Notes: generated from the sequence alone by a model not told the origin. DNA of 64,000 nucleotides from Escherichia coli (GCF_024298765.1 NZ_CP101210.1), one strand, 5' to 3'. Positions 37,305 through 63,488 are shown, counted from the first letter of the stretch. A program made the numbers and translations.

Positions 37305-37527
37305 AATTTTTACAGACTGATAAAGTTTTGTCTGCTGAATCTTTATACGGAATTCTTTTCAGTATGCGTACACGAATTGATTATCTGGCGGATAAATACT
37401 GTTTTACAGAACTGAATGAATCGCCCCGTCTTCGCCGGCAATGGCAGGATGTCCTGGATGAGTGCCGGCAGACAGAGGCAGGGCCGGAAGAACGGTTGCG
37501 TATTGCACTGTTGAATGTGGATTACGT
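37305..37527 (+). repeat. copy 2 of ~220-bp diverged segment (5-prime end of gene at 22855), fused to tssF
   Basis: Encodes ..AESLYGILFSMRTRIDYLADKYCFTELNESPRL.. up to ..LLNVDYV, then switches into the tssF frame. Confidence 0.7.
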
Positions 37528-39206: not shown

Positions 39207-40015
39207 CGCAGGCCCTGGCCCTTAACAACGATATCTGGCGGGCCAGTTTTTATCGTTTCTGCCAGCTGCTGGAGCTGGAAAATCCGGACGGGCCAAAACT
39301 GGGCACGACCAGCCATCCGGGCGATGACCCGGTGCGATTCAGGCCCTGGCCCGGGATGGGATTCCCGGTCAGCACCCTGAAAGCGGTGGAGATCGACGAA
39401 GACCGTCCGACATTACCCCCAACGATCCGCACGACATTTCTCGGAATGTATGGGGTGGACTCACCTCTGCCGACGTCCTGGCTGGATGATATTGCGCAGC
39501 GCCGTGAAGGACATGAGGCGCTCACCTCATTTCTGGATATTTTCAGCCACCGCATCACCACCCAGTACTACCGGATCTGGCGAAAATATGCGTATCCGGC
39601 CACTTTCGAGGAGGGGGGGCGCGATGCCACATCGCAGTGTCTGCTGGGACTGGTCGGACTCGGTATACCCGGCACCGCTGAACAGGTGGCAACGCCGGTT
39701 TCCCGTTTCCTGGCCTTACTGGGTGCCATGCGATTACCCACCCGCAATGCTGAAGGCATCCGGGCTCTGGTGAGTCTGCTGGCACCGGATACCCGCGCAC
39801 TTATCACCGAACCCGATCCGGTTAAGGTCCATATCGATAACCGCAGTGGGCTGGGTGCCGGAAACCGCATCCGTCTTTCGCAGCGGGCCACGCTGGGTAA
39901 AACGGCAGGGGAAGCATGCAGCCGGCTCCTGATGACACTGGAAACAGCGGATCCGGACGAGGCGGAAGGCTGGTTGCCCACAGATAACCGGAGCAGGATT
40001 TACCGCCTTTCTTAG
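39170..40015 (+). pseudogene. tssG: type VI secretion baseplate subunit TssG, C-terminally truncated
   Basis: 281 aa with TssG-like FYRFCQLLE...VRF...FPVS...FLGMYGVDSPLP...FLDIFSHRITTQYYRIWRKY; overlaps tssF end; IS66 fragment starts about 50 bp downstream. Confidence 0.65.
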
Positions 40016-40066
40016 TGTTCAGGATCTTCAGGGTAGTCTCATCTGCATGCACCACCGGACGGTTTA

Positions 40067-40849
40067 TCAACTCGCGATGGAGTAACGCCGCCAGGGGAGA
40101 TAATGCGGCACCCGCCGCGCCAACCATGTCAGCCATCGAACTGACGGGCAGCCCGACACTGAACGGGCAAAGACCTGTTGCTGGCGATACAGAGGCAGGT
40201 GGTCACCGTATTTATTGATGATCACCTGTGTGATGACTGATGGCTCAACGGCACTTTTCGGGAGGATATGTGCCGGCATTTCACCGCTGAACACCTTCTG
40301 GCAACAGGAACAACTGTATTGCGGACGGACATAACGGTTCACCACGAAGTGAACGGGAATATACTCCAGCTTTTCACTCACCGCATCACGGATATAGTGC
40401 AGCGGCTCGTCACATTCAGGGCAATGGTCAGTGTCCGGCTGGATAATTTTTTCCACCCGTGGAAGATGAGCCGGTAAGGGTTTGCGTATCGGGCGTGAAC
40501 GGGACGCTTTTTCGTCTTCTTCAGGGGATTGCGGGAGCAGTTTATCCAGATGTGCGGTAAGCGCGGCGATATCGACATCAACATCCTCTTCGAACAGGGA
40601 GCGTTGCATACCAGCCAGCGTTTCACATTTTTTACCGAAGCGCTGTTGACGAACCAGTTTCAGCATTTCTTCCAGAAGCTGGATGCGCCGGCTTTTCTCC
40701 AGTAATTCCCGCTCTTTTTCGGCATTCTCCGACATGACTTTTTGTACCATGGTAAGTGCCATAGCACGCAGTTTTTCGATGTCATTCGTGGTGTTGAGAG
40801 CGGAGATATCCATACAGGGGAGTATACCACTCCAGATACGGATATTCAT
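40067..40849 (-). pseudogene. tnpC: IS66 TnpC, N-terminal part only
   Basis: Coiled-coil N-terminus, Zn finger CPECDEPL...CSCC, DHLPLYRQ motif; C-terminal half missing. Confidence 0.7.
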
Positions 40850-44437: not shown

Positions 44438-45685
44438 TTACTCATTTCTCATCTTCATCCTTCGGGTAAGCAGAGTCGCACAAATGAATCCCAGCAGACT
44501 AAATGCCACCATTACAGAAAAAACATAGTTATAGCCCTGTATGCCAGAAAAATTATCTAACAGCGAACCATAAAGCGTGTAAGCAAACATGGAAGGCATG
44601 TAACCAATAATGCACCCAAACGCCATTGCTGAACCAGCAAATTCTCTGGGGGTACCGATTTCATCCATTGGCGCAAAAAAAATTGCCCGTTGTGAAAAAA
44701 TGATTGCACCAAATCCAAGAGTTGCAGTCATTCCAAGATAAACATTCATTGAGTCGTGTGGTAGTTGAATAAAAAGTAGCATAGCGACTGCTGAAATAAG
44801 GAAAGTCCATTTCAGATAGATGACCGGAGAATGAGAAATTTTATCTGCGAGATAACCGCCAACTGGCCCGCCCACCATTTTTAGTCCGTACTGGTTAATA
44901 ATCCCGTAAGCACCCACGAGTGCAACGGGAAGGGCATAGATATCTTTCAGGAATGGTATGAAATATGTTAGCCCACAATATGCGGAGTACACAAAGAATA
45001 TACAAAATGAGGCCAGCCACAGATTTGGTGATTTAACGACATTCTTTATCCCCTTGAATATCTGTTTATTAACATCTTCGTCATTCTGTGGAATGGTCCT
45101 GTCGTCTGCATCCACAATAAAGTAGGTGATAATTCCAACAATAATGGTGATTAATGTGTAATAAACAAGACCAGCCTGCATGCCAGCTTTTCCTTCGCCA
45201 AACTGCACAAAGACGAATAAAGCGCCGGACGCAATTAATACATCCACGACTCCTCGTCCAGCTTCCAGAAAGCCGAACATACGTCCCTGTTCATCCCTGT
45301 TCCCCAACAGACGAACAGCTTTAAGTAGCACGGGCCAGTAGACCACTTCGCCAAAGAAAGCCATAGCACCAAAAGCTATAAGGTAACCAGAGAAGGGGGG
45401 TAATGTTGTGAGGTAAGCGCCGCACAGACCCACACCGATTAAACCTGCAGGAAGAAGTATTTTTTTGGAAAAGCGATCTGCTATATATAATGAACTAAAT
45501 AGTCCGATAGTCTGAACAGCAGCATATATTGTAAATCCAAAGCCAATCTGTGTATTAGTCAATCCCCAGTCAGCCTGCATAGGAACATAAAATACGTCCT
45601 TCATACTGGACAATTTGAAAATTGTCCCACCGCCAAGAATAAGGAAGCATAGCTTCATCCATTTATTCATCTGGTTATCCCCCAT
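44438..45685 (-). CDS. MFS transporter
   Basis: 415-aa ORF with ~12 hydrophobic segments; start may be the second ATG (45670); 1-nt overlap with RidA gene. Confidence 0.7.
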   Translation of the reverse strand: MGDNQMNKWMKLCFLILGGGTIFKLSSMKDVFYVPMQADWGLTNTQIGFGFTIYAAVQTIGLFSSLYIADRFSKKILLPAGLIGVGLCGAYLTTLPPFSGYLIAFGAMAFFGEVVYWPVLLKAVRLLGNRDEQGRMFGFLEAGRGVVDVLIASGALFVFVQFGEGKAGMQAGLVYYTLITIIVGIITYFIVDADDRTIPQNDEDVNKQIFKGIKNVVKSPNLWLASFCIFFVYSAYCGLTYFIPFLKDIYALPVALVGAYGIINQYGLKMVGGPVGGYLADKISHSPVIYLKWTFLISAVAMLLFIQLPHDSMNVYLGMTATLGFGAIIFSQRAIFFAPMDEIGTPREFAGSAMAFGCIIGYMPSMFAYTLYGSLLDNFSGIQGYNYVFSVMVAFSLLGFICATLLTRRMKMRNE

Positions 45686-46062
45686 TATTTGATAACCGCA
45701 ATGGCTTCAATTTCTATCAGCACGTCTTTCGGTAATCTGGCGACTTCAACACAGGACCTGGCCGGGTATTTGTCTGATGAGAAATATTCACTGTACAGAA
45801 GGTTAAATTGAGAAAAATTATCCATGTTACTGATAAAACAGGTTGTTTTTACGATGTTATCCATTCCGATTCCTGCAGATTCAATAATTGCCTTCAGATT
45901 ATCCATCGCTTGCCTGGTTTGCCTTTCTATAGTCTCGCCATTTACGGTTCCGTCTTCTGGTTTGAAAGGACAACATCCGGAAATGAACAATAAATTACCA
46001 GTTGATACTGCCTGTACATAGGGACCGATAGCTTTGGGGGCATGTTTAGTATCAATGATCAT
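45685..46062 (-). CDS. RidA/YjgF family reactive-intermediate deaminase
   Basis: 125 aa; MIIDTKHAPKAIGPYVQAV...ARSCVEVARLP pattern typical of RidA. Confidence 0.75.
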   Translation of the reverse strand: MIIDTKHAPKAIGPYVQAVSTGNLLFISGCCPFKPEDGTVNGETIERQTRQAMDNLKAIIESAGIGMDNIVKTTCFISNMDNFSQFNLLYSEYFSSDKYPARSCVEVARLPKDVLIEIEAIAVIK

Positions 46063-46083
46063 AAAAGTATCCTTTTAAATTTA

Positions 46084-47043
46084 TTAACAATATTTTTTTC
46101 TTAAATTCTTCAGAGTCTGAACAGAAACCTCAACACAACGATTTTGGGCTGCCATTAGTTCCTGTAATACAGAGTCAGATATTTTGGCAGGGTAGTAATA
46201 ATCAAGTGGCTTTATTTTCAGGTGTTCAAATGGTGCCTCTTTTACGGAGAATGCCCCTTCCAGAGAATATACGCCGCCAGTACCCTTTGGACGGGCAAAA
46301 GGTGAGGCATATGGGAAACATGTTTCGATGTTTATTCTGGTTAAAGAGGACTCTTTAACCAGAGTTTTAAAGCAGGTATCAATATCAATGCTTCCTTCTC
46401 CGACAGGAACACCACAGACAACCAGGTCTTCGCCGTTGCGTGTGACAATATGATCCTTGAAATGCGTGCTGTAAGCATAAGGAGCCAGTTTACGAACTGT
46501 TTCTACTGGTTCTTCCCATGCCATCATTCCATTACCTATATCACAGTGTGCTCCCACCCACTCAGAATTAACAGATTTGATAACTTCGATTATCTCGTCG
46601 GCAGTTTCATCTTCATGGTTTTCTATTGCCAGTTTAATTTTCTTTCTACTGAGTAAGGATGTCAGTGATTTTAACTGTTCTACTATTTCCGGATATTTCA
46701 GAGGGTTATATTCTCCTCTCCTGAACATATAAGTTCGGATAACTTCTGCTCCAAGTGCAGATGCAATTTCCACTGCTCTGGTGATAGCTTCACAGGAAGT
46801 GAATCGGGTATCTATCTCACAATAAAGACCATGAGAATCAATGGATTTTCTGACTTTTGACAGATATTCAGGAGATATACTGTTCAGGACACCAAATTCC
46901 GGATGCAGACCAACATCCGGAATGATATTAATTTCGACCCCATCCAGCCCCAGTTCACTGGTTTTATCAATGAAGTCGAAAATATCCATCATTCCCTGCT
47001 GAAAGAACAGATGATATGACTCAGTCTCAAGGCCTAGTTTCAT
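46084..47043 (-). CDS. sugar phosphate isomerase/epimerase (xylose-isomerase-like TIM barrel)
   Basis: Start at ATG 47043 with GGAGG RBS; family call from overall sequence resemblance. Confidence 0.55.
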   Translation of the reverse strand: MKLGLETESYHLFFQQGMMDIFDFIDKTSELGLDGVEINIIPDVGLHPEFGVLNSISPEYLSKVRKSIDSHGLYCEIDTRFTSCEAITRAVEIASALGAEVIRTYMFRRGEYNPLKYPEIVEQLKSLTSLLSRKKIKLAIENHEDETADEIIEVIKSVNSEWVGAHCDIGNGMMAWEEPVETVRKLAPYAYSTHFKDHIVTRNGEDLVVCGVPVGEGSIDIDTCFKTLVKESSLTRINIETCFPYASPFARPKGTGGVYSLEGAFSVKEAPFEHLKIKPLDYYYPAKISDSVLQELMAAQNRCVEVSVQTLKNLRKKYC

Positions 47044-47228
47044 GGCGAACCTCCATAGTATTTGAGACTGATTGTAGTTTTTTATACATTTGTAAAATGT
47101 GATCAAAGTAGAATAATTTCTCACTTAGTGAATAAATTTACTACCTGGTGTTATTTTGAGCCACTTTGGTGGACTCTGTTCTGCATCTGGTATAGCATTC
47201 AGATGTACTTTGTTCATGAGGTTATTAT

Positions 47229-47891
47229 ATGAAATCTATTGTTAATCATGAGTTTACTGAGGATGACAGGCAGCTTTTGCTCTCATATATTCCATTCATC
47301 GACAGTCTTGGTCAGTTCTTGGGTGAGTATTGCGAGATCGTCCTGCATAGTTTTGAGGACTTGCATCATTCCGTTATTCATATCGTTAACGGGCATGTGA
47401 CGGGGAGAGAGAAGGGGGCACCTGTAACAAATATAGCACTGGAAAAACTGGCAGAATTTAACTCAACAAACGATATGTGGGATGTCTATTTCAACCATAA
47501 AGGCGTTCGCCCTTTTAAATCATCGTCATCACTTATTCTGAATAAAAATAAAGAACCAGTAGGTATGATATGTATGAACTTTGCTCTGGATATGCCTCTT
47601 AATGCATTTATTGAAAACTTTGCAAAATCGTCAAACTGTAAAAACGAAAATTTCACTCAGGATATCAATAATCTTGTGCTTAGTCACCTTGAACCTGTTA
47701 AAAATATGGTTTACTCCAATAAGAATATACCAAGTAAAAACAAGAACTTTGAAATAGTAAAAGAACTTAATTCTATTGGGTTGTTTAAGTTCCCGGTTAC
47801 AACAAAAATTGTTTCATCGGTTCTTGGTATCAGTGCTAACACTATTTATAAACATCTCAGGGTATTAAATAATAAGGGGAAGGAGAATTAA
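47229..47891 (+). CDS. YheO-like PAS-domain transcriptional regulator
   Basis: 220 aa; divergent from the MFS-RidA-isomerase operon; C-terminal HTH VLGISANTIYKHLR. Confidence 0.5.
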   Translation: MKSIVNHEFTEDDRQLLLSYIPFIDSLGQFLGEYCEIVLHSFEDLHHSVIHIVNGHVTGREKGAPVTNIALEKLAEFNSTNDMWDVYFNHKGVRPFKSSSSLILNKNKEPVGMICMNFALDMPLNAFIENFAKSSNCKNENFTQDINNLVLSHLEPVKNMVYSNKNIPSKNKNFEIVKELNSIGLFKFPVTTKIVSSVLGISANTIYKHLRVLNNKGKEN

Positions 47892-48778
47892 GGTGTCTGT
47901 ATTCTGAACTTATAAGTAAGTTGTTTGTCTGAAGCGTATTGATATTTATTTTTCGGTTAGAGCAACTTTCTAGGGAAACAGATCGCGTATCCAGTTTGCC
48001 TGTCATTCCTAGATATGTTCAATGACGTAACGCAGCCATTTTTCTGGAGCCATATTGTTCAGACGGCATGTACCAATCCGCAGGTACAGCATCGCCGCAT
48101 CCTCAAGTAATGCCGGTAATTTGGGGCGTAATTCTGTTGCGCTTTTACTGAACACAATGCCGTATTCAGTAAGAAGTCCAAGAACATGATCTATCAGTTG
48201 TGTCCTTCCATCGAGATCAACCGATGCATTTTCAAAAAAGCCTGGACGTTCTGTAGGTCCAGACTTTTTATTGGTACCAGTCGTATAGTTCTATATTGAT
48301 AGGTTTCAGCTATTGCTGTGCGTTGTTATAATCATTTTTCTGACGCCATTGATAAGATTTAACATGTTGTGCTGGATGCAATATTACATCATAGTTGAGT
48401 TCCCTTATTTCCTGTGGGCAGTGATGGGATGTCCCGCAAGCCTTCATCGCAACGGTCATTTTGGCTGTTATACCAGCCAGTTAAGCAGTTGGTTGTGAGA
48501 AAGTTTGATCTTTCCCGCGTGATTGCCACGAGCATTGATACTGAAAAGATAAAAGTTCGTTTTAGCCTGAGCGATGTCGGTAATTTTCTGTTCAATCATG
48601 GCCTTTCTCTTACTTTTGTGGTTAAAATTTATTCGCTATGGCGCAATTGAAAGCGGTCGTGAAGGTGGGGGAAGACTATCTCATCACTTACCATATTTCC
48701 GACATATTCTCACAACAAAATACCACGTAACTATTGATGAATATTGTTCTCTCCTGAGCAGCGTTTATGCTTTAATTG

Positions 48779-48794
48779 CTAAATCGATTTAATT
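48779..48794 (+). promoter_or_regulatory. candidate ScrR operator upstream of scrK
   Basis: Near-palindrome GCTAAATCGATTTAAT inside larger inverted repeat AATTGCTAAA...TTTAGCAATT, 30 bp before the scrK start. Confidence 0.45.
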
Positions 48795-48823
48795 AGTTTA
48801 GCAATTAGTATATTGGAGCCTTT

Positions 48824-49744
48824 ATGAGCACAAGAGTATGGGTACTTGGTGATGCGGTTGTTGATTTATTACCCGAAAGCCAGGGGAGACTACTACAGTG
48901 TCCTGGCGGGGCGCCTGCTAATGTTGCAGTCGGTATCGCAAGGCTGGGGGGGAAAAGTGCCTTTATTGGCAAAGTTGGCGATGATCCTTTCGGTCGCTTT
49001 ATGTATCAGACACTGAGTACAGAAAATGTTGATACACGTTATATGTCTCTTGATCCTCAACATCGCACCTCAATTGTGGCTGTAGGACTTGATGAGCAAG
49101 GAGAAAGAAACTTTACCTTTATGGTACGCCCAAGTGCCGATCTTTTTTTACAACCTGATGGCCTTCCTGCATTTGGGCCGGGTGAATGGCTCCATCTTTG
49201 TTCCATTGCGCTCAGTGCAGAACCTTCCCGAAGTACCGCATTTCTGGCTATGGAGAAAATACGTCAGGCTGGCGGAAACATCAGTTTTGATCCCAATATC
49301 CGCAGCGATCTCTGGCAGAGTGAAGCGCTATTAAGGAAATACCTTGATCGCGCACTTTCGCTGGCGAATATCGCTAAATTGTCCGAAGAAGAGTTGCTAT
49401 TCATCAGTGGCGAAAGCCAGGTTCAGCAAGGCGCATATTCATTAGTACAACGTTATTCGTTGACTTTATTGCTTATCACACAAGGAAAAAATGGCGTACT
49501 TGTGTATTTTCAGGGGCAGTTTATCCACTATCCCGCCAAACCTGTTTCTGTCGTCGATACGACCGGGGCAGGAGATGCTTTTGTCGCTGGATTACTTGCC
49601 GGTCTGGCTGATTCTGGAATACCAACAAATACCAGACAGCTTGAACGAATCATTGTACAAGCTCAGATTTGTGGTGCTCTGGCGACCACGGCTAAAGGCG
49701 CGATGACCGCCTTACCCCGACAACACGATCTCCCTTCACAATAG
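48824..49744 (+). CDS. scrK: fructokinase
   Basis: 306 aa; ribokinase/pfkB family motifs (GGAPANVA; DTTGAGDAF); first gene of scr cluster. Confidence 0.85.
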   Translation: MSTRVWVLGDAVVDLLPESQGRLLQCPGGAPANVAVGIARLGGKSAFIGKVGDDPFGRFMYQTLSTENVDTRYMSLDPQHRTSIVAVGLDEQGERNFTFMVRPSADLFLQPDGLPAFGPGEWLHLCSIALSAEPSRSTAFLAMEKIRQAGGNISFDPNIRSDLWQSEALLRKYLDRALSLANIAKLSEEELLFISGESQVQQGAYSLVQRYSLTLLLITQGKNGVLVYFQGQFIHYPAKPVSVVDTTGAGDAFVAGLLAGLADSGIPTNTRQLERIIVQAQICGALATTAKGAMTALPRQHDLPSQ

Positions 49745-49795
49745 TGATCCTGCTGTTGTATCTGTAACCCGATTTGTCGTGCCTGTCACATTTAC

Positions 49796-49866
49796 TAAAT
49801 CGGTTTAGCGAAAATAATTGCTTTGGCTAAAAAGTCAGCTTTATTATCAACACCTAAACCGGTTTA
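49796..49866 (+). promoter_or_regulatory. scrY promoter region with two palindromic LacI-type operators
   Basis: TAAATCGGTTTA at 49796-49807 and perfect palindrome TAAACCGGTTTA at 49855-49866. Confidence 0.55.
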
Positions 49867-49887
49867 GCATTTTAGCAATTTTTATAA

Positions 49888-51429
<1,542 letters not shown>

Positions 51430-51489
51430 TACCAGACAACCTCACAGATGTGAAGTTTTTACTGAAATAACAATGAATTAGAGGGTTAT

Positions 51490-52860
51490 ATGGATTTCGA
51501 TAAAATCGCCCAATCGTTGCTTCCTTTATTAGGTGGTAAGGAGAACATCGCCAGTGCAGCACATTGCGCCACTCGCCTACGGCTGGTACTGGTTGACGAC
51601 ACACTTGCCGATCAACATGCCATTGGCCAGATTGATGGAGTGAAAGGTTGTTTTCGTAATTCAGGGCAAATGCAAATTATCTTTGGCACCGGCGTGGTTA
51701 ATAAAGTCTATGCTGCCTTTATTCAGGTTGCAGGTATTAGCGAATCCAGTAAAGCAGATATCGCTCGACTCGCCGCTCAAAAACTCAATCCTTTTCAGCG
51801 AATAGCACGGCTACTTTCTAATATTTTTGTCCCCATCATTCCAGCCATTGTTGCTTCTGGTTTATTAATGGGGCTTCTGGGAATGGTGAAAACATATGGC
51901 TGGGTGAATACCGATAATGCGATTTATATCCTGCTGGATATGTGCAGTTCAGCCGCATTTATTATTCTCCCCATCCTTATTGGCTTTACTGCTGCTCGTG
52001 AATTTGGTGGAAATCCTTATCTTGGCGCGACATTAGGAGGGATTCTGACTCACCCGGCACTCACAAATGCCTGGGGCGTTGCTGCGGGATTTCAGACAAT
52101 GAACTTCTTCGGTTTTGAAATCGCCATGATTGGCTATCAGGGAACGGTTTTCCCCGTGCTTCTGGCAGTATGGTTTATGAGCATAGTGGAAAAACAGTTA
52201 CGCAGGTTTATCCCTGATGCTCTGGATCTCATTCTGACGCCATTTCTGACTGTCGTCATTTCTGGCTTTATCGCTCTTTTGATTATTGGTCCGGCAGGAC
52301 GAGCGTTAGGTGACGGTATCTCTTTCGTTCTCAGCACGCTGATTGCACACGCAGGCTGGTTAGCAGGGTTGTTATTCGGCGGGCTATATTCAGCGATTGT
52401 TATTACGGGTATTCATCATAGCTTCCACGCAATTGAAGCAGGACTTTTAGGTAACCCTGCAATCGGTGTTAATTTCCTGCTGCCTATTTGGGCAATGGCA
52501 AACGTTGCGCAAGGCGGTGCATGTCTGGCGGTATGGTTTAAAACCAAAGATACAAAAATTAAAGCAATCACCCTACCCTCGGCCTTTTCCGCAATGTTAG
52601 GGATTACTGAAGCCGCTATTTTTGGTATCAACCTTCGTTTTGTTAAACCTTTTATTGCGGCCTTAATTGGTGGCGCTGCCGGCGGTGCCTGGGTTGTCTC
52701 TGTTCACGTTTATATGACTGCCGTTGGTCTGACCGCAATACCCGGCATGGCAATCGTTCAGCCAACATCGTTGGTTAATTATATTATTGGAATGGTGATT
52801 GCTTTCGCTGTCGCTTTTAGCCTCTCTTTATTATTCAAATACAAAACGGACGAGGAGTAA
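51490..52860 (+). CDS. scrA: PTS sucrose-specific EIIBC component
   Basis: 456 aa; EIIB Cys motif (AAHCATRLRL) then membrane EIIC domain. Confidence 0.85.
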   Translation: MDFDKIAQSLLPLLGGKENIASAAHCATRLRLVLVDDTLADQHAIGQIDGVKGCFRNSGQMQIIFGTGVVNKVYAAFIQVAGISESSKADIARLAAQKLNPFQRIARLLSNIFVPIIPAIVASGLLMGLLGMVKTYGWVNTDNAIYILLDMCSSAAFIILPILIGFTAAREFGGNPYLGATLGGILTHPALTNAWGVAAGFQTMNFFGFEIAMIGYQGTVFPVLLAVWFMSIVEKQLRRFIPDALDLILTPFLTVVISGFIALLIIGPAGRALGDGISFVLSTLIAHAGWLAGLLFGGLYSAIVITGIHHSFHAIEAGLLGNPAIGVNFLLPIWAMANVAQGGACLAVWFKTKDTKIKAITLPSAFSAMLGITEAAIFGINLRFVKPFIAALIGGAAGGAWVVSVHVYMTAVGLTAIPGMAIVQPTSLVNYIIGMVIAFAVAFSLSLLFKYKTDEE

Positions 52861-54269
52861 TGTCGATGCCTTCACAAATGCCCGCGATTTTACAGGCAGT
52901 GATGAAAGGTCAGTCCAAAGCACTGGCAGATGCCCACTATCCTTGTTGGCATCTCGCTCCCGTCACCGGACTAATGAACGATCCAAATGGCTTTTGCTGG
53001 TCTGGAGGCCGCTATCATCTGTTTTATCAGTGGAATCCACTGGCTTGTGATCATAAGTACAAATGTTGGGGGCACTGGAGTTCGACGGATTTATTGCACT
53101 GGCAGCATGAACCATTAGCGCTAATGCCCGATAAAGAGTACGACCGTAATGGTTGTTACTCAGGAAGCGCGGTTAATAATCAGGGCGTTCTCACACTTTG
53201 CTATACCGGTAATGTTAAGTTTGATGATGGCAGCAGAACGGCATGGCAATGTCTGGCCACCGAAAATAACCAGGGCGGGTTTGATAAACTAGGCCCTGTC
53301 ATATCGTTACCTGATGGTTACACCGGACATGTTCGTGATCCAAAAGTCTGGAAGCACAACAGCCAATGGTACATGGTGCTTGGCGCGCAAGATAAAGAGA
53401 AACGGGGGAAAGTGCTGCTGTATTCCTCTGTCGATCTGAATACCTGGTCTTTTCATGGAGAAATTGCTGGTAACGGTCTGAATGAAATAGATAACGCAGG
53501 ATACATGTGGGAATGTCCTGATCTTTTCGCCCTTGATGGTGAATACATTCTCCTCTGTTGCCCCCAGGGAATGGTGCGCGAACATGAGCGCTATCTGAAT
53601 ACTTATCCCTGCGCCTGGCTACATGGACAGTTTGATTACGAGACAGGCAAATTTACGCATGGCGCTTTCTCAGAGCTGGATGCGGGATTTGAATTCTATG
53701 CACCACAGACGATGGAAGCCCCGGACGGGCGACGATTGCTGGTCGGCTGGATGGGGGTTCCTGATGGCGAAGAGATGTTGCAGCCAACCAGAAAGCATCA
53801 TTGGCAGCATCAAATGACCTGTTTTCGCGAACTCTCATTCCAGAAGGGAAAATTGTTTCAGATGCCAATCAGGGAACTCGCGCAACTGCGTGAAGCTGAA
53901 CACTTCTGGCAAGGAAAAGCGGATCATGCGCCGCATGTCGAAATTGAACGCCTGGAAATGGACATCATTCCGTCGGGTGAGCTGTATCTGAATTTTGGCA
54001 ATGCGCTGGCACTGCATCTTAATGACGATGGTATTCAACTACAGAGGAGAAGCCTTGCAGGGCAAGAGAAACTAACTCGTTACTGGCGAGGAAGCGTAAC
54101 GTCACTGAAGATTCTCTGTGACAGTTCCAGCGTAGAGATATTCATCAATAATGGTGAAGGTGTAATGAGTAATCGTTATTTTCCCCATCATCCAGCTTCG
54201 CTGATATTACAGGGTGAGTCTGACGTCACGTTACGCTACTGGTCGCTACGCGCCTGCATGGTAGAATGA
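52860..54269 (+). CDS. scrB: sucrose-6-phosphate hydrolase (GH32)
   Basis: 469 aa; GH32 motifs NDPNG, RDP, EC; start overlaps scrA stop (TAATG). Confidence 0.85.
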
Positions 54270-54294
54270 GGGTTTTGAATTACGGATCCTCGTC

Positions 54295-55302
54295 GTGAGA
54301 AAAACCAAACGCGTTACTATTAAAGACATTGCTGAACTGGCGGGAGTGTCGAAAGCAACCGCCAGTCTGGTTCTCAATGGTCGTGGCAAAGAGTTACGTG
54401 TTGCGCAGGAAACGCGTGAGCGTGTGCTGAGTATTGCCCAACAGCAGCATTATCAGCCCAGCATTCATGCCCGCTCATTACGGGACAACCGCAGTCATAC
54501 CATTGGTCTCGTCGTTCCTGAAATCACTAACTACGGATTTGCAGTATTTTCCCATGAACTGGAAACATTGTGTCGGGAAGCGGGCGTCCAACTCCTCATA
54601 TCCTGTACTGATGAAAATCCTTCACAGGAAACAATGGTGGTGAACAATATGATTGCCCGCCAGGTTGATGGGTTAATCGTCGCATCCAGTATGCTGCATG
54701 ATAATGACTATCAAAAACTTAGCGAGCAATTACCTGTTGTGTTGTTCGATCGCCACATGAACGGCAGCACATTGCCATTGGTCATTACTGACTCTGTTTC
54801 TCCCACCGCCGCTCTGGTGGCAGATATTGCACGGAGTCACCCGGATGAATTCTATTTTCTGGGGGGACAACCCCGTTTGTCACCGACTCGCGATCGACTG
54901 GAAGGATTTACACAAGGCTTGCAGCAAGCCGGAGTAACGCTACAACCTGAATGGATTATTCACGGTAATTATCATCCGAGCTCAGGCTATGAAATGTTTG
55001 CCGCGCTATGCGCTCGTTTAGGACGTCCTCCTAAAGCCTTATTCACTGCCGCTTGTGGATTACTGGAAGGCGTTCTGCGCTATATGAGCCAATATAATTT
55101 ACTCGACAGTACAATCCACCTGGCGAGTTTTGATGATCATTATTTGTATGATTCACTTTCGGTAAGAATCGACACAATACAACAGGATAATCGCCAACTT
55201 GCTTTTCACTGCTTTGAGCTTATTTCGCAACTGATTGAAGGTGAAACGCCATCCCCATTACAGCGTTATCTTCCTGCCAGTTTACAAAAACGCTATAGAT
55301 AA
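54295..55302 (+). CDS. scrR: LacI-family sucrose operon repressor
   Basis: 335 aa; GTG start; N-terminal [25 protein letters not shown]. Confidence 0.8.
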
Positions 55303-55380
55303 TTTATTAATTATCTTATGTAGCTGAGTATTAGGTGACAAATGATCAGTCTTTCCCACGACAATTGTATCGTTCTGATG

Positions 55381-55690
55381 AACTCATATTGACGCATTTT
55401 TCGGGCGTATCAGCCCCCGGTGTTACGAATGGTGCATACGAACGATCGCAGTTTGACGATGGTTGATTTATTTTGTTGCGCAGGGGCAATCGCCTGCTAG
55501 GTACCGAAGGCTGGCTCTGAAGTACTGAGTCGGGTGATCGCGTCTGGCCGCTGGCTGCGAATTACTGACACGGGATTGGTGGCAGGTGATGAAATCCTGT
55601 CCCGGAAATGGCTCCGGATTGATTCAAGTTCTGACCCGCTGTCAGCCCGCGTGGTTGCTGCTCTGGCTCATTTCCTGTCGTCAGTTTTCT
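55381..55690 (+). repeat. copy 2 of diverged intergenic repeat (partner at 30024-30240), ~110 bp longer
   Basis: Same conserved blocks as copy 1 with an extra internal segment (about 55520-55630). Confidence 0.5.
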
Positions 55691-55853
55691 CATGCCCGGC
55701 TGCGGGTTTTCGGACTGAATGATAATATCTGACGACAGGAGTCGCTCATCTATCGAAGGTAAATCTCCCTGAAAGTAATAGTTCTGGCAGGGGGAACAGA
55801 ACTGTAATCATTGTGCCGTAATTTGAGTTGGCTACCTTTGCTACATGAAAACT

Positions 55854-56327
55854 TTATTCACTTTGTTCATGTTGATTGGGTTTTTCAATGAGGAAAGTTT
55901 CCAGGGTACAATCTCCATTAACCTGTTTCCGCAAAGCAAGTGGCATTTTACCGTTACCAGACCACGTCCTGGTTTCGCCGTTCTCATCCTCAAAGATATA
56001 TTTCGCTTTTCTCACACCGCCTTTGGGTTTTCGTTTGGTTTCCGTTGTCCCTGCAATAGCAGAAACTGGACCCTGCCATTCTTCCGGGTCAAGCCCCACA
56101 GAAACGATGTACTCAAATACCTGTTGACATTTAGTTTCCAGTTCCTTACGTTCAGCCGCTTTTCGTTCAGCATCTTCACGGCGTTCTTCAATAACAGTGT
56201 TGAGCTTTTCCTGCATGTCGAGTAATTGCTCAAAATCAAGTTCGCGTACATACGTGCGTAGTGAACGAATATTCGTCATTGTCCGACTGATGATGCTGTA
56301 TTCTTCTTCTTTAGTCAGTTTGCACAT
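55854..56327 (-). CDS. H-NS family nucleoid-associated protein (island-borne paralogue)
   Basis: 157 aa; C-terminal KYIFEDENGETRTWSGNGKMP matches the H-NS DNA-binding motif; strong RBS AGAGGGG. Confidence 0.75.
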   Translation of the reverse strand: MCKLTKEEEYSIISRTMTNIRSLRTYVRELDFEQLLDMQEKLNTVIEERREDAERKAAERKELETKCQQVFEYIVSVGLDPEEWQGPVSAIAGTTETKRKPKGGVRKAKYIFEDENGETRTWSGNGKMPLALRKQVNGDCTLETFLIEKPNQHEQSE

Positions 56328-56645
56328 AATTCCCCTCTCTTTTGCAATAAACGTGTTTTCTCTGGTGGGTTGATTACCCAGTCTTTTTTACTGTGTCTGA
56401 CATTTTGTACTGTGGTGCAGTTGTAATGCAAACCTTCCGGGCTTCTGGGACACAGCATTTCAGTCCGGGCCCCATCATTACCATTTTGTTGATTCGAAAC
56501 GAAAACCCTCACCAATATCGATCGATTTTACCGATCGATATGATCACATCGATCGGTTGTAACCATTTTACCCTGTCTTTTGCATGGTTTTAAAATAGGC
56601 AACCCTCTTTGTCGGGTAGGGCAAGAACCAACGGAGATGATTGAA

Positions 56646-57383
56646 ATGAAAAAGGTTATTGCGGTTTCAGCGCTTGCAATGGCAGGCATGTTTTCGGCCC
56701 AGACTCTGGCTGATGAGAGCAAAACAGGCTTTTATGTGACCGGTAAAGCCGGTGTTTCTGTTATGTCACTTTCAGAGCAACGTTTCGTTGATGGTGAAGG
56801 GGCATGGGCGGATAAATACAAAGGCAGTGACAAAAGTGATACGGTTTTTGGCGCAGGCCTTGCGGTGGGATACGATTTTTATCAGCACTACAATGTGCCG
56901 GTGCGTACTGAAGTGGAGTTTTATGGCCGCGGTAACGCTGAATCAAAATATCGTCTGAGTTATTGGGAAAGTGCCGGTGGTGCCGAGTTCGATGATGCAC
57001 AGAACAAGCTCAGTGTAAACACGCTGATGCTGAATGCGTATTATGATTTCAGAAACAGCAGTGCATTCACGCCATGGATATCTGCTGGTCTGGGTTATGC
57101 ACGGGTTCATCATAAAACTTCGTACATATATACCGATAACAGCCCGGCAGGCAGTGAAGTTTATTCAGCTTCAGCGTCAAAATACGAAAACAACCTGGCA
57201 TGGAGCCTGGGTGCCGGTGTTAAATACGATGTGACGCAGGATTTCAGCCTTGACCTCAGCTACCGGTATCTGGATGCAGGGGATTCCACTCTGACTTATA
57301 AAGATGAGGATGGTGCTAAATATAAATCCTCTGTTGATGTCAGAAGTAACGAGTTTATGTTAGGTGCAACATATAACTTCTGA
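56646..57383 (+). CDS. outer-membrane beta-barrel protein (OmpA-like/opacity family)
   Basis: Start at ATG 56646; signal peptide MKKVIAVSALAMAGMFSAQTLA; alternating aromatic pattern and C-terminal ...YNF. Confidence 0.6.
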   Translation: MKKVIAVSALAMAGMFSAQTLADESKTGFYVTGKAGVSVMSLSEQRFVDGEGAWADKYKGSDKSDTVFGAGLAVGYDFYQHYNVPVRTEVEFYGRGNAESKYRLSYWESAGGAEFDDAQNKLSVNTLMLNAYYDFRNSSAFTPWISAGLGYARVHHKTSYIYTDNSPAGSEVYSASASKYENNLAWSLGAGVKYDVTQDFSLDLSYRYLDAGDSTLTYKDEDGAKYKSSVDVRSNEFMLGATYNF

Positions 57384-58039
57384 CAGCCATTTCTGCCTGC
57401 GCTTTGGAGCACAGTAAAGTGCAGGTATGACAAATCAATAACAGATATCCTGATGATATTCTCCCTCTGGCAACTAATAATTTCAGATGAATGAAATATA
57501 AATAGAGCAAAAATATTACTTTCGTTGATTTTTTACAGGGGGCAGGTAGCGCGCAGTATGGTTGTCAGTCTGTTAAATGAAAAAGGACTGTTGTTGGGAC
57601 ACGTTGTTTTTTGTCATATCAGCCCTTCCGGAAACAATAAACCGTATTACGAAGGAGGCTCCCGGACATCTGGTTTAAAGTTTGAACATAATCAAATAAA
57701 AATCTGTTGCCGGAGGGCGTAGTTTTGTGGAACTGACAAATGATGTCAGGAGTATTTATATAATTCACTTACACAAGAGTAATACTACAGGTGCAGTGAT
57801 TTATGGTTGACTCAACGAGAAATCGCTCAGCGGAGCGTTTGACTGGATATCGGTAGCGGGATGTCCTTTATGTCATTTTTGCCTTCTGCCGTAGGAACCA
57901 CAACGTGGGCCCAGACCCGTTGCTTCTCCTTCGGACTCTGTGCCGTATCATCACTGCGGAAGTTCCTGAGAAACCACTGTGAGAGCATGTGCTGATTTCT
58001 GGTGTATCCCATAATAGTATCCTTACATCACTGAATACA

Positions 58040-58712
58040 ATTTAATCGTAAGCTCCATCGGCGGCGGCTGACCTGATTTTCCGGTGGGTTTGCCGGATTA
58101 ACCCGGGGAAGGCCTCTGAGTCCGTAACGTTGTTCAGCGACAGGTCAGCGCAGATGATTTCATGTGTTTTACTGTCAACTGCCAGATGCAGCTTACGCCA
58201 TATACGACGGCGTTCCTGGCCATGCTTTTTGACTTTCCACTCGCCTTCACCGAAGACCTTCAGCCCGGTGGAATCAATTACCAGGTGTGCGATTTCACCC
58301 CGGGTGGGCGTTTTGAAACTGATATTAACCGACTTTGCCCGCCTGCTGACACAGCTGTAATCCGGGCAGCGTAGCGGAACGTTCATCAGAGAAAAAATGG
58401 AATCAATAAAGCCCTGCGCAGCGCGCAGGGTCAGCCTGAATACGCGTTTAATGACCAGCACAGTCGTGATGGCAAGGTCAGAATAGCGCTGAGGTCTGCC
58501 TCGTGAAGAAGGTGTTGCTGACTCATACCAGGCCTGAATAGCTTCATCATCCAGCCAGAAAGTTATGGAGCCACGGTTGATGAGGGCTTTATTGTAGGTG
58601 GGCCAGTTGGTGATTTTGAACTTTTGCTTTGCCACGGAACGGTCTGCGTTGTCGGGAAGATACGTGATCTGATCCTTCAACTCAGCAAAAGTTCGATTTA
58701 TTCAACAAAACC
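58040..58712 (-). mobile_element. IS903: IS903, truncated (about 670 of 1057 bp retained)
   Basis: Inverted repeat GATTTATTCAACAAAACC ending at 58712 beside the bla stop; transposase ORF breaks off after ...ADGAYD. Confidence 0.8.
58042..58680 (-). pseudogene. IS903 transposase, C-terminally truncated
   Basis: 212 aa matching the N-terminal two-thirds of IS903 transposase as recalled. Confidence 0.8.
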
Positions 58713-58714
58713 AG

Positions 58715-59608
<894 letters not shown>

Positions 59609-59706
59609 TCAATCCGTGTTACATCAGTATTCCCTAAATTCCACGTGTGTTTTTTATTAGCTTCAAAAATCACTATTTCACGAAGAATTTAGACTGCTTC
59701 TCACAC

Positions 59707-59736
59707 ATTGTAACATTATTTACAACCACCTTTCAA
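59707..59736 (-). promoter_or_regulatory. ISEcp1 outward promoter for blaCTX-M (-35 TTGAAA, -10 TACAAT)
   Basis: Minus strand reads TTGAAA-18 bp-TACAAT between the IS10 insertion and the ISEcp1 right end. Confidence 0.6.
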
Positions 59737-59821
59737 TCATTTTTGATAAATCATTGATTTCATCTTTGCTGCAATGATACTTAATAAACTCTGCAAGTTA
59801 TCCACAGAGCAACACTCAATT

Positions 59822-61150
59822 CTGAGAGATCCCCTCATAATTTCCCCAAAGCGTAACCATGTGTGAATAAATTTTGAGCTAGTAGGGTTGCAGCCACGAG
59901 TAAGTCTTCCCTTGTTATTGTGTAGCCAGAATGCCGCAAAACTTCCATGCCTAAGCGAACTGTTGAGAGTACGTTTCGATTTCTGACTGTGTTAGCCTGG
60001 AAGTGCTTGTCCCAACCTTGTTTCTGAGCATGAACGCCCGCAAGCCAACATGTTAGTTGAAGCATCAGGGCGATTAGCAGCATGATATCAAAACGCTCTG
60101 AGCTGCTCGTTCGGCTATGGCGTAGGCCTAGTCCGTAGGCAGGACTTTTCAAGTCTCGGAAGGTTTCTTCAATCTGCATTCGCTTCGAATAGATATTAAC
60201 AAGTTGTTTGGGTGTTCGAATTTCAACAGGTAAGTTAGTTGCTAGAACCCATGGCTCCTTTGCCGACGCTGAGTAGATTTTAGGTGACGGGTGGTGACAA
60301 TGAGTCCGTGTCGAGCGCTGATTTTTTCGGCCTTTAGAGCGAGATTTATACAATAGAATTTGGCATGAGATTGGATTGCTTTTAGTCAGCCTCTTATAGC
60401 CTAAAGTCTTTGAGTGACTAGATGACATATCATGTAAGTTGCTGATAGGTTTCCAGTTTTCCGCTCCTAGGTCTGCATATTGTACTTTTCCTCTTACTCG
60501 ACTTAACCAGTACCAACCCAGCTTCTCAACGGATTTATACCATGGCACTTTAAAGCCAGCATCACTGACAATGAGCGGTGTGGTGTTACTCGGTAGAATG
60601 CTCGCAAGGTCGGCTAGAAATTGGTCATGAGCTTTCTTTGAACATTGCTCTGAAAGCGGGAACGCTTTCTCATAAAGAGTAACAGAACGACCGTGTAGTG
60701 CGACTGAAGCTCGCAATACCATAAGTCGTTTTTGCTCACGAATATCAGACCAGTCAACAAGTACAATGGGCATCGTATTGCCCGAACAGATAAAGCTAGC
60801 ATGCCAACGGTATACAGCGAGTCGCTCTTTGTGGAGGTGACGATTACCTAACAATCGGTCGATTCGTTTGATGTTATGTTTTGTTCTCGCTTTGGTTGGC
60901 AGGTTACGGCCAAGTTCGGTAAGAGTGAGAGTTTTACAGTCAAGTAATGCGTGGCAAGCCAACGTTAAGCTGTTGAGTCGTTTTAAGTGTAATTCGGGGC
61001 AGAATTGGTAAAGAGAGTCGTGTAAAATATCGAGTTCGCACATCTTGTTGTCTGATTATTGATTTTTCGCGAAACCATTTGATCATATGACAAGATGTGT
61101 ATCCACCTTAACTTAATGATTTTTACCAAAATCATTAGGGGATTCATCAG
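59822..61150 (-). mobile_element. IS10: IS10 (1329 bp) inserted in ISEcp1
   Basis: Ends CTGAGAGATCCCCTCATAATTTCCCC (59822) and CTGATGAATCCCCTAATGATTTTGG (61150); perfect 9-bp direct repeat CACTCAATT at 59813-59821 and 61151-61159. Confidence 0.95.
59835..61043 (-). CDS. IS10 transposase
   Basis: 402-aa ORF matching IS10 transposase as recalled. Confidence 0.9.
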   Translation of the reverse strand: MCELDILHDSLYQFCPELHLKRLNSLTLACHALLDCKTLTLTELGRNLPTKARTKHNIKRIDRLLGNRHLHKERLAVYRWHASFICSGNTMPIVLVDWSDIREQKRLMVLRASVALHGRSVTLYEKAFPLSEQCSKKAHDQFLADLASILPSNTTPLIVSDAGFKVPWYKSVEKLGWYWLSRVRGKVQYADLGAENWKPISNLHDMSSSHSKTLGYKRLTKSNPISCQILLYKSRSKGRKNQRSTRTHCHHPSPKIYSASAKEPWVLATNLPVEIRTPKQLVNIYSKRMQIEETFRDLKSPAYGLGLRHSRTSSSERFDIMLLIALMLQLTCWLAGVHAQKQGWDKHFQANTVRNRNVLSTVRLGMEVLRHSGYTITREDLLVAATLLAQNLFTHGYALGKL

Positions 61151-61177
61151 CACTCAATTTTATTGATGATATTCTTA

Positions 61178-62440
61178 TTATACCAGACATTTTTCATACA
61201 CTCCCTTGTACGGATAGTTTTCCGACAACTTCATGATTACATATCTTGCGGTTTTGATTATTTTTGCTGCAAGAAATACATACTTCAAACGAAAGGTCTT
61301 TATTTGCTGTCTGTATTCTGAAGAGTCCAAGGAATCAAACTTGAACAACAAAAATAGGTTATATGAAAGCATCATCATTTGAAACACGGCTTCATTCGCC
61401 CAAAATGACTTTAGCAAGAGATGACCCACCGCCATGTCGTATTTGGCTTCTTTGATATAGTTTTCAGCATTACCACGCTTTTCATAGTATATAACTACTT
61501 TTTCAGAAAGCAAGGTAGTATTTGTTACAAAGAAAAAGTAGTCGTATTCGGAACCTTCTAAAAGTGATAATTGTGCTCTTTCTTTTTCTGGTTTCAGTAC
61601 GCGAGATACGACAAATCTTCTGTCTTTTTCCCATTTAACTAATTTTGTATACAGTTCTGTAGTTTCTCTACCTTCTTCTCCTTTAACGAATACAATTGAT
61701 GAATTCGTTGCTTGTGAGGTGAGTGTAGAATAACTTTTGGCTTTAATTAAATATTTGCATCCAAGAGATTCTATCGTTTCGATAATTTTTTCATCAAAGT
61801 AGCCACTATCCATTCGAAATAAAATTTCTAAATCGTCTGATTTGATGTTAGCAACAATTTCTTTGATCATTTCCGCAGCACCGTTTGCAGTGTAAGTATT
61901 GCCACTTCTTACAAATCCGGTAACATATGCTTTTAATTCGTCGCAAAATGCAAATTGGATATTGTAGCATCGGTTTCCCAGTTTCTTAGGATTATATCCT
62001 TTTGACGCACCTTCTTGATGACCTTCTACGTTAATTACACTACTATCAATATCAATCGTAATGGATGTCAATTTACTTTTAGTGAGCAGTTTTTTAAAGA
62101 CTTTAAAATTAATGTCTCTAAACATTTGGGTTGTCTTGAAGTTGAAGTTTCCTAGAAACCGTGACACTGTTTCAGGTTCTTTTACGGAAATATCAAACTC
62201 GTTGACGAGGGGATCATTTTGAAGTAGCTTTAGACGTTCTAACTTATCAATGCCAATGAAGTGACCGCAGAGCATGGTCTTTATATGATTCATCTTGATT
62301 TTATTTGTTGAGTCATTATCAAATACGAGGTCATTTTCAATAAAATCAAAAATCCCATTGCTTTTTGCATTCTCAAGGAGCAGAAAAAGACCTGCATTTG
62401 ATGTTAGATTCTTAGCTTTGAAATCAATTTTATTAATCAT
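61178..62440 (-). CDS. tnpA: ISEcp1 transposase
   Basis: 420-aa ORF matching ISEcp1 transposase as recalled. Confidence 0.9.
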   Translation of the reverse strand: MINKIDFKAKNLTSNAGLFLLLENAKSNGIFDFIENDLVFDNDSTNKIKMNHIKTMLCGHFIGIDKLERLKLLQNDPLVNEFDISVKEPETVSRFLGNFNFKTTQMFRDINFKVFKKLLTKSKLTSITIDIDSSVINVEGHQEGASKGYNPKKLGNRCYNIQFAFCDELKAYVTGFVRSGNTYTANGAAEMIKEIVANIKSDDLEILFRMDSGYFDEKIIETIESLGCKYLIKAKSYSTLTSQATNSSIVFVKGEEGRETTELYTKLVKWEKDRRFVVSRVLKPEKERAQLSLLEGSEYDYFFFVTNTTLLSEKVVIYYEKRGNAENYIKEAKYDMAVGHLLLKSFWANEAVFQMMMLSYNLFLLFKFDSLDSSEYRQQIKTFRLKYVFLAAKIIKTARYVIMKLSENYPYKGVYEKCLV

Positions 62441-62627
62441 AATTAGAACCCCTTTTTACTACTTTTCTTACTATTATTTTACCATATATCGAGTCATAAA
62501 AGCTGATAATTTAACATATTTTTGAGCACTTTTCTTTCACCCAATGGGTGAAAGCTGAATTTCGAAGGAATGCATATTTATCAAGGCTTTGATTATGCTT
62601 TTTGAAGTACTGACGTAGAATCTAGGT

Positions 62628-63488
62628 TTGATTGATATCCTTGTTGAATTACAAAATTATGGCGTGGTCAGTCGCTATAATTTGATGAAAAAATACAACA
62701 TCACTGAGCGAACAGCATATCGTGATCTGAATATGCTTTCTCCCTTTATTGAAGCCTGTGGCGATGGAAAATACCGGCTTATTTCGGCAAGAGCAGGAAA
62801 CCAGAGCAAAGAATCACTGCACAAATCTCTGGCCAGGTTACTGGATACTGATGCGATTTTTCCTGAACGGGATGAAGGTTTCTGGCAGAAATTAGAAAAC
62901 AGGGCAACCGAAAGGCATATTCGTGTTCAGTTTCATAACCCTGAGCACACCATCAGGGATGATTTAAGAAAATATCTTGATGTTCTTGAAAAAGCGATCT
63001 GCAACAGTAATGTTTGCCAGATTGCATATGCCGGTAAGACCAGAATCGTTCATCCCTATAAATTAACTAATCAGAGAGGTATATGGTATTTGCTGGCTAC
63101 TGAAGAGAACAAGTTAAAGTCGTTTTCATTAGCTAAAATAAAATGGCTGGATATAAAAAAAGAAAAGTTTGCAAAGAGTGATGAAATCCAGTCACTGGTA
63201 AGTGAGTCATGTGACCCGTGGGTGAGCGACAAAACATTTGATGTTGTGTTGTTCATTTACAGTAATATCGCCCATTATTTTTTGCGACGGGACTTACTTC
63301 CTTACCAGCAATTGCTACACAAACATGACAATGGCATTACGCTGTCATGCAAGGCTGCACATAAAAATCAAATTGTCCCGTTGATTTTATACTGGCTACC
63401 GAATGTTGAAATTATTGAACCAGTATGGCTGAAAGAAGCCGTGTTAACAATGTTAGGAAAATACCTTACTGCTGAGAATGTTTCCTGA
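62628..63488 (+). pseudogene. WYL-domain transcriptional regulator, 5-prime end removed by ISEcp1 insertion
   Basis: HTH (YNITERTAYRDLNML) and WYL motif (RGIWYLLA); ORF begins 2 bp after the ISEcp1 inverted repeat with no ATG. Confidence 0.6.

Follow-up and report, generated by a model that had tools for sequence, protein, structure and literature searches.

A sucrose regulon of the scrK/scrYABR type on a genomic island of Escherichia coli, with its predicted ScrR operators

Gene content and identity of the scr cluster

We analyzed a 64-kb stretch of Escherichia coli DNA (the window) that carries, all on the plus strand at 48824-55302, five genes for sucrose use: scrK, scrY, scrA, scrB, and scrR (Table 1). 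None of the five open reading frames (ORFs) has an internal stop, and the start codon of scrB overlaps the stop codon of scrA by 1 nucleotide. In its gene order, its phosphotransferase system (PTS) enzyme ScrA, its enzymes ScrB and ScrK, its porin ScrY, and its repressor ScrR, the cluster agrees with the enterobacterial PTS-dependent scr regulon. We conclude, with a probability of about 0.95, that it represents, in a functional-looking form, the scrK/scrYABR regulon by which Enterobacteriaceae use sucrose through the PTS, as an allele that is carried on a genomic island and was acquired horizontally. An earlier reading of this DNA from its sequence alone (the sequence-only reading) had described a complete sucrose regulon with five intact genes in canonical order, and the comparisons below bear out that description.

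Four of the five proteins (ScrK, ScrA, ScrB, and ScrR) exceed the cutoffs of curated NCBIfam models. The TIGR01996 match spans residues 3-449 of the 456 in ScrA; it fills the whole protein and therefore leaves no room for a IIA domain. ScrY passes no NCBIfam cutoff and matches only maltoporin models (122.6 bits versus 394). We call it a sucrose porin because it contains the Pfam domains PF02264 (LamB) and PF11471 (sugar-porin N-terminal) and because its mature domain of 413 amino acids is 77% identical to ScrY of plasmid pUR400, for which structures have been solved (PDB 1a0s, 1a0t, and 1oh2; E = 1.8e-226 over the barrel).

Our comparison set comprised 80 loci from different species. Set against these loci, each of the five window proteins aligns over its full length with its orthologues, which come from about 75 species. 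The order K-Y-A-B-R is kept in nearly all complete five-gene loci; scrK is inverted in two and lies further off in a few others. Relative to the allele of E. coli strain EC958, which sits between ygcE and queE, there are 46 coding differences, of which 34 are synonymous and 12 change an amino acid (ScrY, 1; ScrR, 1; ScrA, 3; ScrB, 3; ScrK, 4). Residues conserved at 90% or more are departed from at a handful of positions, mostly by conservative substitutions; phenylalanine 449 of ScrA is specific to the window allele among the three alleles compared, and the residue is leucine in all 76 orthologues examined. The predominance of synonymous differences suggests purifying selection, and nothing in the sequence suggests that any of the scr genes has been inactivated.

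Table 1. Features of the scr cluster and of the neighboring resistance insert, in window coordinates; operators, promoter elements, and the CRP-like site are predictions
Feature	Position	Strand	Sequence or size	Remarks
scrK extended -10 (candidate)	48768-48776	+	TGcTTTAAT	
scrK operator (predicted ScrR site)	48779-48792		CTAAATCGATTTAA	first base 45 bp before scrK ATG
Extra half-site at scrK	48796-48802		GTTTAGC	4 nt beyond scrK operator; columns 0.7-0.9 conserved
scrK	48824-49744	+	306 aa	PfkB-family ATP-dependent fructokinase; NF006957, 505.8 bits (cutoff 450)
CRP-like site	49775-49790		TGTCG-N6-TCACA	center about 71.5 bp before inferred scrY start
Upstream scrY operator (predicted)	49795-49808		CTAAATCGGTTTAG	1 mismatch from perfect palindrome; ends 9 bp before -35
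scrY promoter (inferred)	49818-49847	+	-35 TTGCTT (49818-49823); -10 TATTAT (49842-49847)	18-bp spacer
Downstream scrY operator (predicted)	49854-49867		CTAAACCGGTTTAG	perfect 14-bp palindrome; begins 58 bp before scrY ATG
scrY	49912-51429	+	505 aa	sucrose-specific outer-membrane porin; LamB-type barrel and N-terminal coiled-coil extension
scrA	51490-52860	+	456 aa	sucrose PTS enzyme IIBC; TIGR01996, 649 bits (cutoff 559)
scrB	52860-54269	+	469 aa	GH32 sucrose-6-phosphate hydrolase; TIGR01322, 550 bits (cutoff 356)
scrR	54295-55302	+	335 aa	GTG start; LacI/GalR-family repressor, FruR/ScrR subfamily; TIGR02417, 462 bits (cutoff 390)
scr module as exchange unit	48707-55303	+	6.6 kb	stretch common with the EC958 ygcE-queE copy, 99.1%
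IS903B, truncated	58042-58680	-		
blaCTX-M	58715-59590	-		CTX-M-14 by annotation in strain ECJXMCRH7 (99.99% identical)
ISVsa5/IS10-like copy	59835-61043	-		
ISEcp1	61178-62440	-		

Predicted operators and promoters

Two 14-bp palindromes flank the -35 and -10 elements of scrY and one further site lies at scrK; by sequence and position, these three palindromes are predicted ScrR operators. Before scrY the sequence-only reading had seen a perfect palindrome and a near-identical second site. The perfect one, TAAACCGGTTTA, matches without mismatch at 49855-49866 and extends to a full 14-bp site that is itself perfectly symmetric, and the second, TAAATCGGTTTA at 49796-49807, differs from it by one mismatch. 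The related site it had proposed before scrK is present and conserved (TAAATCGATTTA at 48780-48791, with two mismatches to TAAACCGGTTTA), but the label of near-palindrome does not suit its inner 12 bp, which form a perfect palindrome; symmetry is broken by the outer pair C...A alone. The degenerate 14-mer CTAAANCGNTTTAR has three exact matches in the 64 kb, which are the three operators and no other site. With one mismatch allowed it has eight matches, against a mean of 0.71 in shuffled sequence, and none of 100 shuffles reaches eight.

These sites keep their places across species. In nearly every one of 68 to 76 species loci, the motif matches twice before scrY, about 116 and 57 bp ahead of the start codon and 58 to 60 bp apart; where scrK lies just upstream (68 loci), 62 have a match 31 to 61 bp before its ATG. 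When 68 distinct scrK-scrY intergenic regions were aligned with MAFFT, the two scrY palindromes are the most conserved intergenic blocks (0.90 for the upstream and 0.97 for the downstream operator), compared with 0.50 for the stretch between them and 0.47 and 0.53 for the stretches upstream and downstream of both. The scrK operator reaches a conservation of 0.83 in the 68-sequence alignment, whereas the DNA that precedes it reaches 0.29. The helix-turn-helix of ScrR (residues ~8-30) is nearly invariant across 77 sequences, which fits an unchanged recognition motif. In pUR400, two 14-bp operators flank the scrY promoter, with mutational evidence for ScrR (Cowan 1991; Jahreis and Lengeler 1993, as summarized in Stephens et al. 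2024, PMC11251922); the window sites agree with that description in position, and the scrY promoter is placed between them in the same way. Position 48784 in the scrK operator is T in the window (CTAAATCGATTTAA) and C in the ygcE-queE and plasmid alleles (CTAAACCGATTTAA), but the base varies among species, which makes the change to T probably neutral.

Between the scrY operators, the conserved columns are TTGC (49818-49821) and TAnnAT (49842-49847). A -35/-10 pair at these positions, with its 18-bp spacer, would put the scrY transcription start at about 49854, where the downstream operator begins. A simple sigma-70 consensus scan returned nine sites against a shuffle mean of 12.9 and did not pick this pair; its match near scrY, which overlaps the upstream operator, was dropped in favor of the conserved TTGC...TAnnAT pair. 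At scrK, the candidate extended -10 lies in a block, TGTGCTTnAAT, that is conserved just before the operator in 68 sequences, and this element would, by inference only, put the transcription start within the scrK operator, near 48783. A CRP-like site adjoins the upstream scrY operator, with its TG and TCACA columns conserved at 0.9 or above in 68 loci, and catabolite repression of the pUR400 scrY promoter has been reported (PMC11251922). Unlike the loci of Klebsiella, Enterobacter, and Kluyvera, the E. coli-type locus of the window has no GC-rich hairpin after scrK (49745-49794); this stretch folds at -8.0 kcal/mol, compared with a median of -14.8, and takes rank 49 of 59. Such an arrangement makes some read-through likely, and transcription from scrK probably runs into scrYABR. 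We do not claim repressor looping between the scrY operators, since their center spacing of 59 bp does not correspond to whole helical turns and ScrR has no evident tetramerization tail.

The extra half-site beyond the scrK operator forms an 11-nucleotide perfect inverted repeat with the left half-site (TAATTGCTAAA at 48773-48783 and TTTAGCAATTA at 48797-48807), so that the scrK arrangement consists of a left half GCTAAA, a degenerate right half TTTAAT, and a canonical TTTAGC about one helical turn further on. Of the species loci with an operator ending in degenerate TTTAA, all 37 have TTTAGC 4 to 7 nucleotides beyond it; of the 24 with the canonical ending TTTAG, just 4 have it and 20 do not. 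The species are related, and these loci do not count as independent events. The way in which the far TTTAGC tracks a degenerate near half suggests two ScrR binding registers or recruitment of a second dimer, so that ScrR might bind in another register or make a further contact at the half-site. Just as well, the half-site may go back to an old duplication that was retained on other grounds, for example through overlap with the -10-like TTTAAT or with the 5' untranslated region. We also considered the repeated TTTAGCAATT after the downstream scrY operator as an element common to both promoters and rejected it: it is not conserved at scrY (0.48; 17 of 57 loci), and the element is therefore retained for scrK alone. 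That the scrK control region is a three-part operator strikes us as unlikely on present grounds; if true, the threshold for repression or induction of scrK would differ from that of scrYAB.

Relatives, genomic contexts, and neighboring DNA

The scr regulon, its operators, and this allele are already known, because the locus is 100% identical to annotated loci and is described in the literature. Many E. coli chromosomes have annotated loci that match the 6.9 kb at 48600-55500 with 100% identity, and 1015 of 5426 complete E. coli genomes (about a fifth) carry the locus. In strains 222 and ECJXMCRH7, the annotated genes encode all five proteins with 100% identity; the matching records are WP_000107666, WP_000277208, WP_000344909, WP_023181052, and WP_001232703, with ScrK corresponding to WP_000107666.1 in locus L001. 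Given that identity to many annotated E. coli loci, the newsworthiness implied by the sequence-only reading was overstated.

The closest described relative is the "native" scr locus of E. coli, known from SCU-147, EC958, and other B2/F lineages (PMC11251922; Trevino-Quintanilla et al. 2007, cited there), which has the same five genes and the same spacing. The EC958 and window copies are 99.1% identical in nucleotide sequence over 48707-55303 (0.9% of bases differ), and their two scrY operators are identical. They differ in location, the EC958 copy replacing the CRISPR2.2/iap array (CRISPR, clustered regularly interspaced short palindromic repeats) and the window copy lying on a genomic island; in two bases, at 48784 in the scrK operator and at 49823 in the -35 element, which are C in the EC958 copy and T in the window; and in a hairpin and T-run after scrR that are present in the ygcE-queE copy and missing from the window copy. 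A CRISPR2 (iap) repeat remnant, sought as a sign of ygcE-queE origin, gave no match even with three mismatches. The cloned SCU-147 locus gave fast sucrose growth in scr-negative E. coli (Stephens et al. 2024, PMC11251922), removal of scrR speeded that growth further, and four scr-positive isolates, one of them of sequence type 131 (ST131), were at least 99% identical to one another (PMC11251922). A 99%-identical type of locus thus confers fast sucrose growth when cloned, and the window allele is predicted to function.

The scr systems of the Salmonella plasmid pUR400 and of the chromosome of Klebsiella pneumoniae (Schmid, Lengeler, Jahreis, Titgemeyer; Cowan 1991) have the same gene content and order and the same two units, scrK and scrYABR. 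As in the window, they have two 14-bp operators at scrY and a single one at scrK, all just as far from the start codons as in the window (loci L021 and L032), and a ScrY with an N-terminal extension. Klebsiella oxytoca, whose ScrY is 95.6% identical to pUR400 ScrY, served as the stand-in for pUR400 DNA. Protein identity between the window and K. pneumoniae ATCC 13883 is no more than moderate, at 74% for ScrY, 68% for ScrK, 65% for ScrB, 91% for ScrA, and 85% for ScrR. Besides the GC-rich hairpin after scrK, found in Klebsiella and missing from the window, the two differ in the first base of the upstream scrY operator, which is C in the window and T in Klebsiella.

The csc regulon of E. coli EC3132 and W resembles scr in that it serves sucrose use and has a LacI-family repressor, paired palindromic operators, and a fructokinase. 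However, it combines the proton symporter CscB with the cytoplasmic invertase CscA and has no porin and no PTS enzyme II, whereas the window encodes ScrY, enzyme IIBC (EIIBC), and a sucrose-6-phosphate hydrolase; with a PTS EIIBC as transporter and a porin present, identity with this non-PTS regulon was rejected. Another candidate relative is the scr-bearing conjugative transposon CTnscr94 of Salmonella Senftenberg (Hochhut et al. 1997, cited in PMC11251922). The likeness lies in scr genes on an integrated element linked to a tRNA-Phe locus, a link seen for the present island in locus L001, where tRNA-Phe is accompanied by an integrase. The window has no conjugation genes that we could see beside scr and no tRNA gene. 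CTnscr94 is a self-transmissible element of ~100 kb that integrates into the tRNA-Phe genes pheV or pheU.

The sequence-only reading placed the cluster in mosaic DNA rich in insertion sequences (IS) and proposed horizontal acquisition, and both proposals agree with what we found. Remnants of IS66 and IS3 occupy 40.8-44.2 kb, and an IS903B fragment, blaCTX-M-14, ISVsa5, and ISEcp1 occupy 58.0-62.4 kb. The module that lies in this island is at least 98.9% identical across three genomic contexts: the ygcE-queE chromosomal locus (EC958; 99.1% over 48707-55303, ~880 records); this island (99.8-100% over the whole module, in ~108 genomes that have the window's left junction); and IncF conjugative plasmids (48691-55764, with 98.9% identity over 48691-55500; 22-40 records). 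The island and plasmid copies have extra flanking DNA in common (48691-55764). The 6.6-kb module has sharp edges without IS, one of them 117 bp ahead of scrK and the other at the first base past the scrR stop codon. Separately from the question of the scrK operator, the module may move as a discrete cassette by some route, a suggestion that we regard as doubtful. In strain 222 an integrase and a tRNA-Phe gene mark the end of the island; a tRNA scan of the 64-kb window found none, and the attachment site of the island therefore lies outside the window, with the tRNA-Phe link coming solely from the related genome. In the 2024 survey, the native-type module adjoined queE in almost all of the closed genomes from lineages B2 and F, the collection contained no plasmid-borne copy, GenBank plasmid carriage was noted for a C. 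freundii-like scr locus alone, and movement of scr by plasmids or conjugative transposons was judged uncommon in E. coli (PMC11251922).

Directly downstream of scrR is a gene on the minus strand for an H-NS/StpA paralogue of 157 amino acids (55854-56327), and the next gene encodes an OmpW/adhesin-like outer-membrane protein (56580-57383). The chromosomal resistance insert that follows (57852-62625; Table 1) is missing from strain 222, and a helix-turn-helix regulator gene (62628-63488) has lost its 5' end to it. On the other side, a divergent helix-turn-helix regulator gene (47229-47891) lies just upstream of scr, and an unrelated sugar-type operon on the minus strand within 44438-47891 encodes a major facilitator superfamily (MFS) transporter, a RidA-family protein, and a sugar-phosphate isomerase/epimerase; ECJXMCRH7 has an additional ISVsa5 copy inserted at about window position 47020. 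Truncated type VI secretion genes, tssF and tssG, lie at ~37500-40100 beside IS66 remnants and are annotated as pseudogenes in a near-identical record. Further away, a mosaic block at ~9000-32200 contains IS1, a RelB/DinJ antitoxin, a type I restriction-modification system, rhuM, mobI, a group II intron (ltrA) inside IS3 remnants, and nanY/nanX; this block also occurs in the tRNA-Leu (leuX) island of strain Z226-7.

Proposed regulation and alternative readings

The following scheme takes its pathway steps from established knowledge of pUR400 and Klebsiella and its regulatory steps from sequence and conservation in the present locus. Sucrose would pass the outer membrane through the porin ScrY and would be taken up as sucrose-6-phosphate by the scrA product EIIBC(Scr) acting with host IIA(Glc). 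ScrB would split sucrose-6-phosphate into glucose-6-phosphate and fructose, and ScrK would phosphorylate the fructose. ScrR dimers may occupy the two palindromes that bracket the scrY promoter, one before the -35 element and one over the start, and a third site over or beside the scrK promoter; bound ScrR would shut off scrK and scrYABR by occluding RNA polymerase at both promoters. Release would come with fructose or fructose-1-phosphate, formed once some sucrose has been metabolized, and both are reported to act as inducers that free pUR400 operators of ScrR (PMC11251922). The CRP-like site may add catabolite control.

The sequence itself holds nothing that contradicts the reading of the cluster as a functional-looking sucrose regulon, but some points weigh against it. 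The Prokaryotic Genome Annotation Pipeline (PGAP) names ScrK "aminoimidazole riboside kinase"; the 12 amino acid differences from the EC958 ygcE-queE allele include ScrA F449; the pathway depends on host ptsI, ptsH, and crr, and these genes lie outside the window; and for this copy the transcription starts and the binding of ScrR and CRP are inferred. ScrR regulation has been tested experimentally in the pUR400 and Klebsiella systems alone.

The alternative with most to recommend it is that the cluster is a silent or decaying remnant, with ORFs of intact length that are unexpressed or inactive in the island. Its setting among pseudogenes and IS fragments, the H-NS paralogue gene immediately after scrR, and a G+C content of 43-49%, slightly under that of the typical E. 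coli core, would all fit such a fate, as would the few allele-specific substitutions at conserved positions (e.g., ScrA L449F) and the slow growth on sucrose of some scr-positive isolates (PMC11251922). A decaying locus is, however, hard to square with five ORFs that are all full length, with promoter elements and three operators that are intact, with the 34 synonymous changes among the 46 coding differences from EC958, and with retention of the same allele at 99.8-100% identity in ~108 complete genomes. We therefore consider a silent remnant very improbable and retain the reading of a functional-looking regulon.

The palindromes, for their part, might be bound by another LacI-family protein, such as host Cra/FruR, or be conserved for a reason that has nothing to do with ScrR. 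The closest solved structures to ScrR are in fact Cra/FruR proteins, and the motif has the general form of the family, with a central CG. However, the half-site here is CTAAA, and Cra sites have the half-site TGAAA or TGAAT; moreover, the sites accompany scrR in every locus examined, and they are conserved together with the near-invariant ScrR helix-turn-helix. Together with the mutational evidence for ScrR at the equivalent pUR400 sites (PMC11251922), this leaves either alternative with next to no likelihood, and ScrR remains the predicted ligand of all three operators.

As a discovery, this locus is of little importance, and its practical value lies in annotation. What it adds to the picture drawn by the 2024 survey is modest, namely copies of the native-type module on an island and on plasmids: the module occurs on IncF plasmids and also, beside a blaCTX-M-14 insertion in the chromosome, in an island that a related genome has next to tRNA-Phe. 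We predict that the strain ferments sucrose fast, which is a trait used in diagnostics and of interest for sucrose-based bioprocessing.

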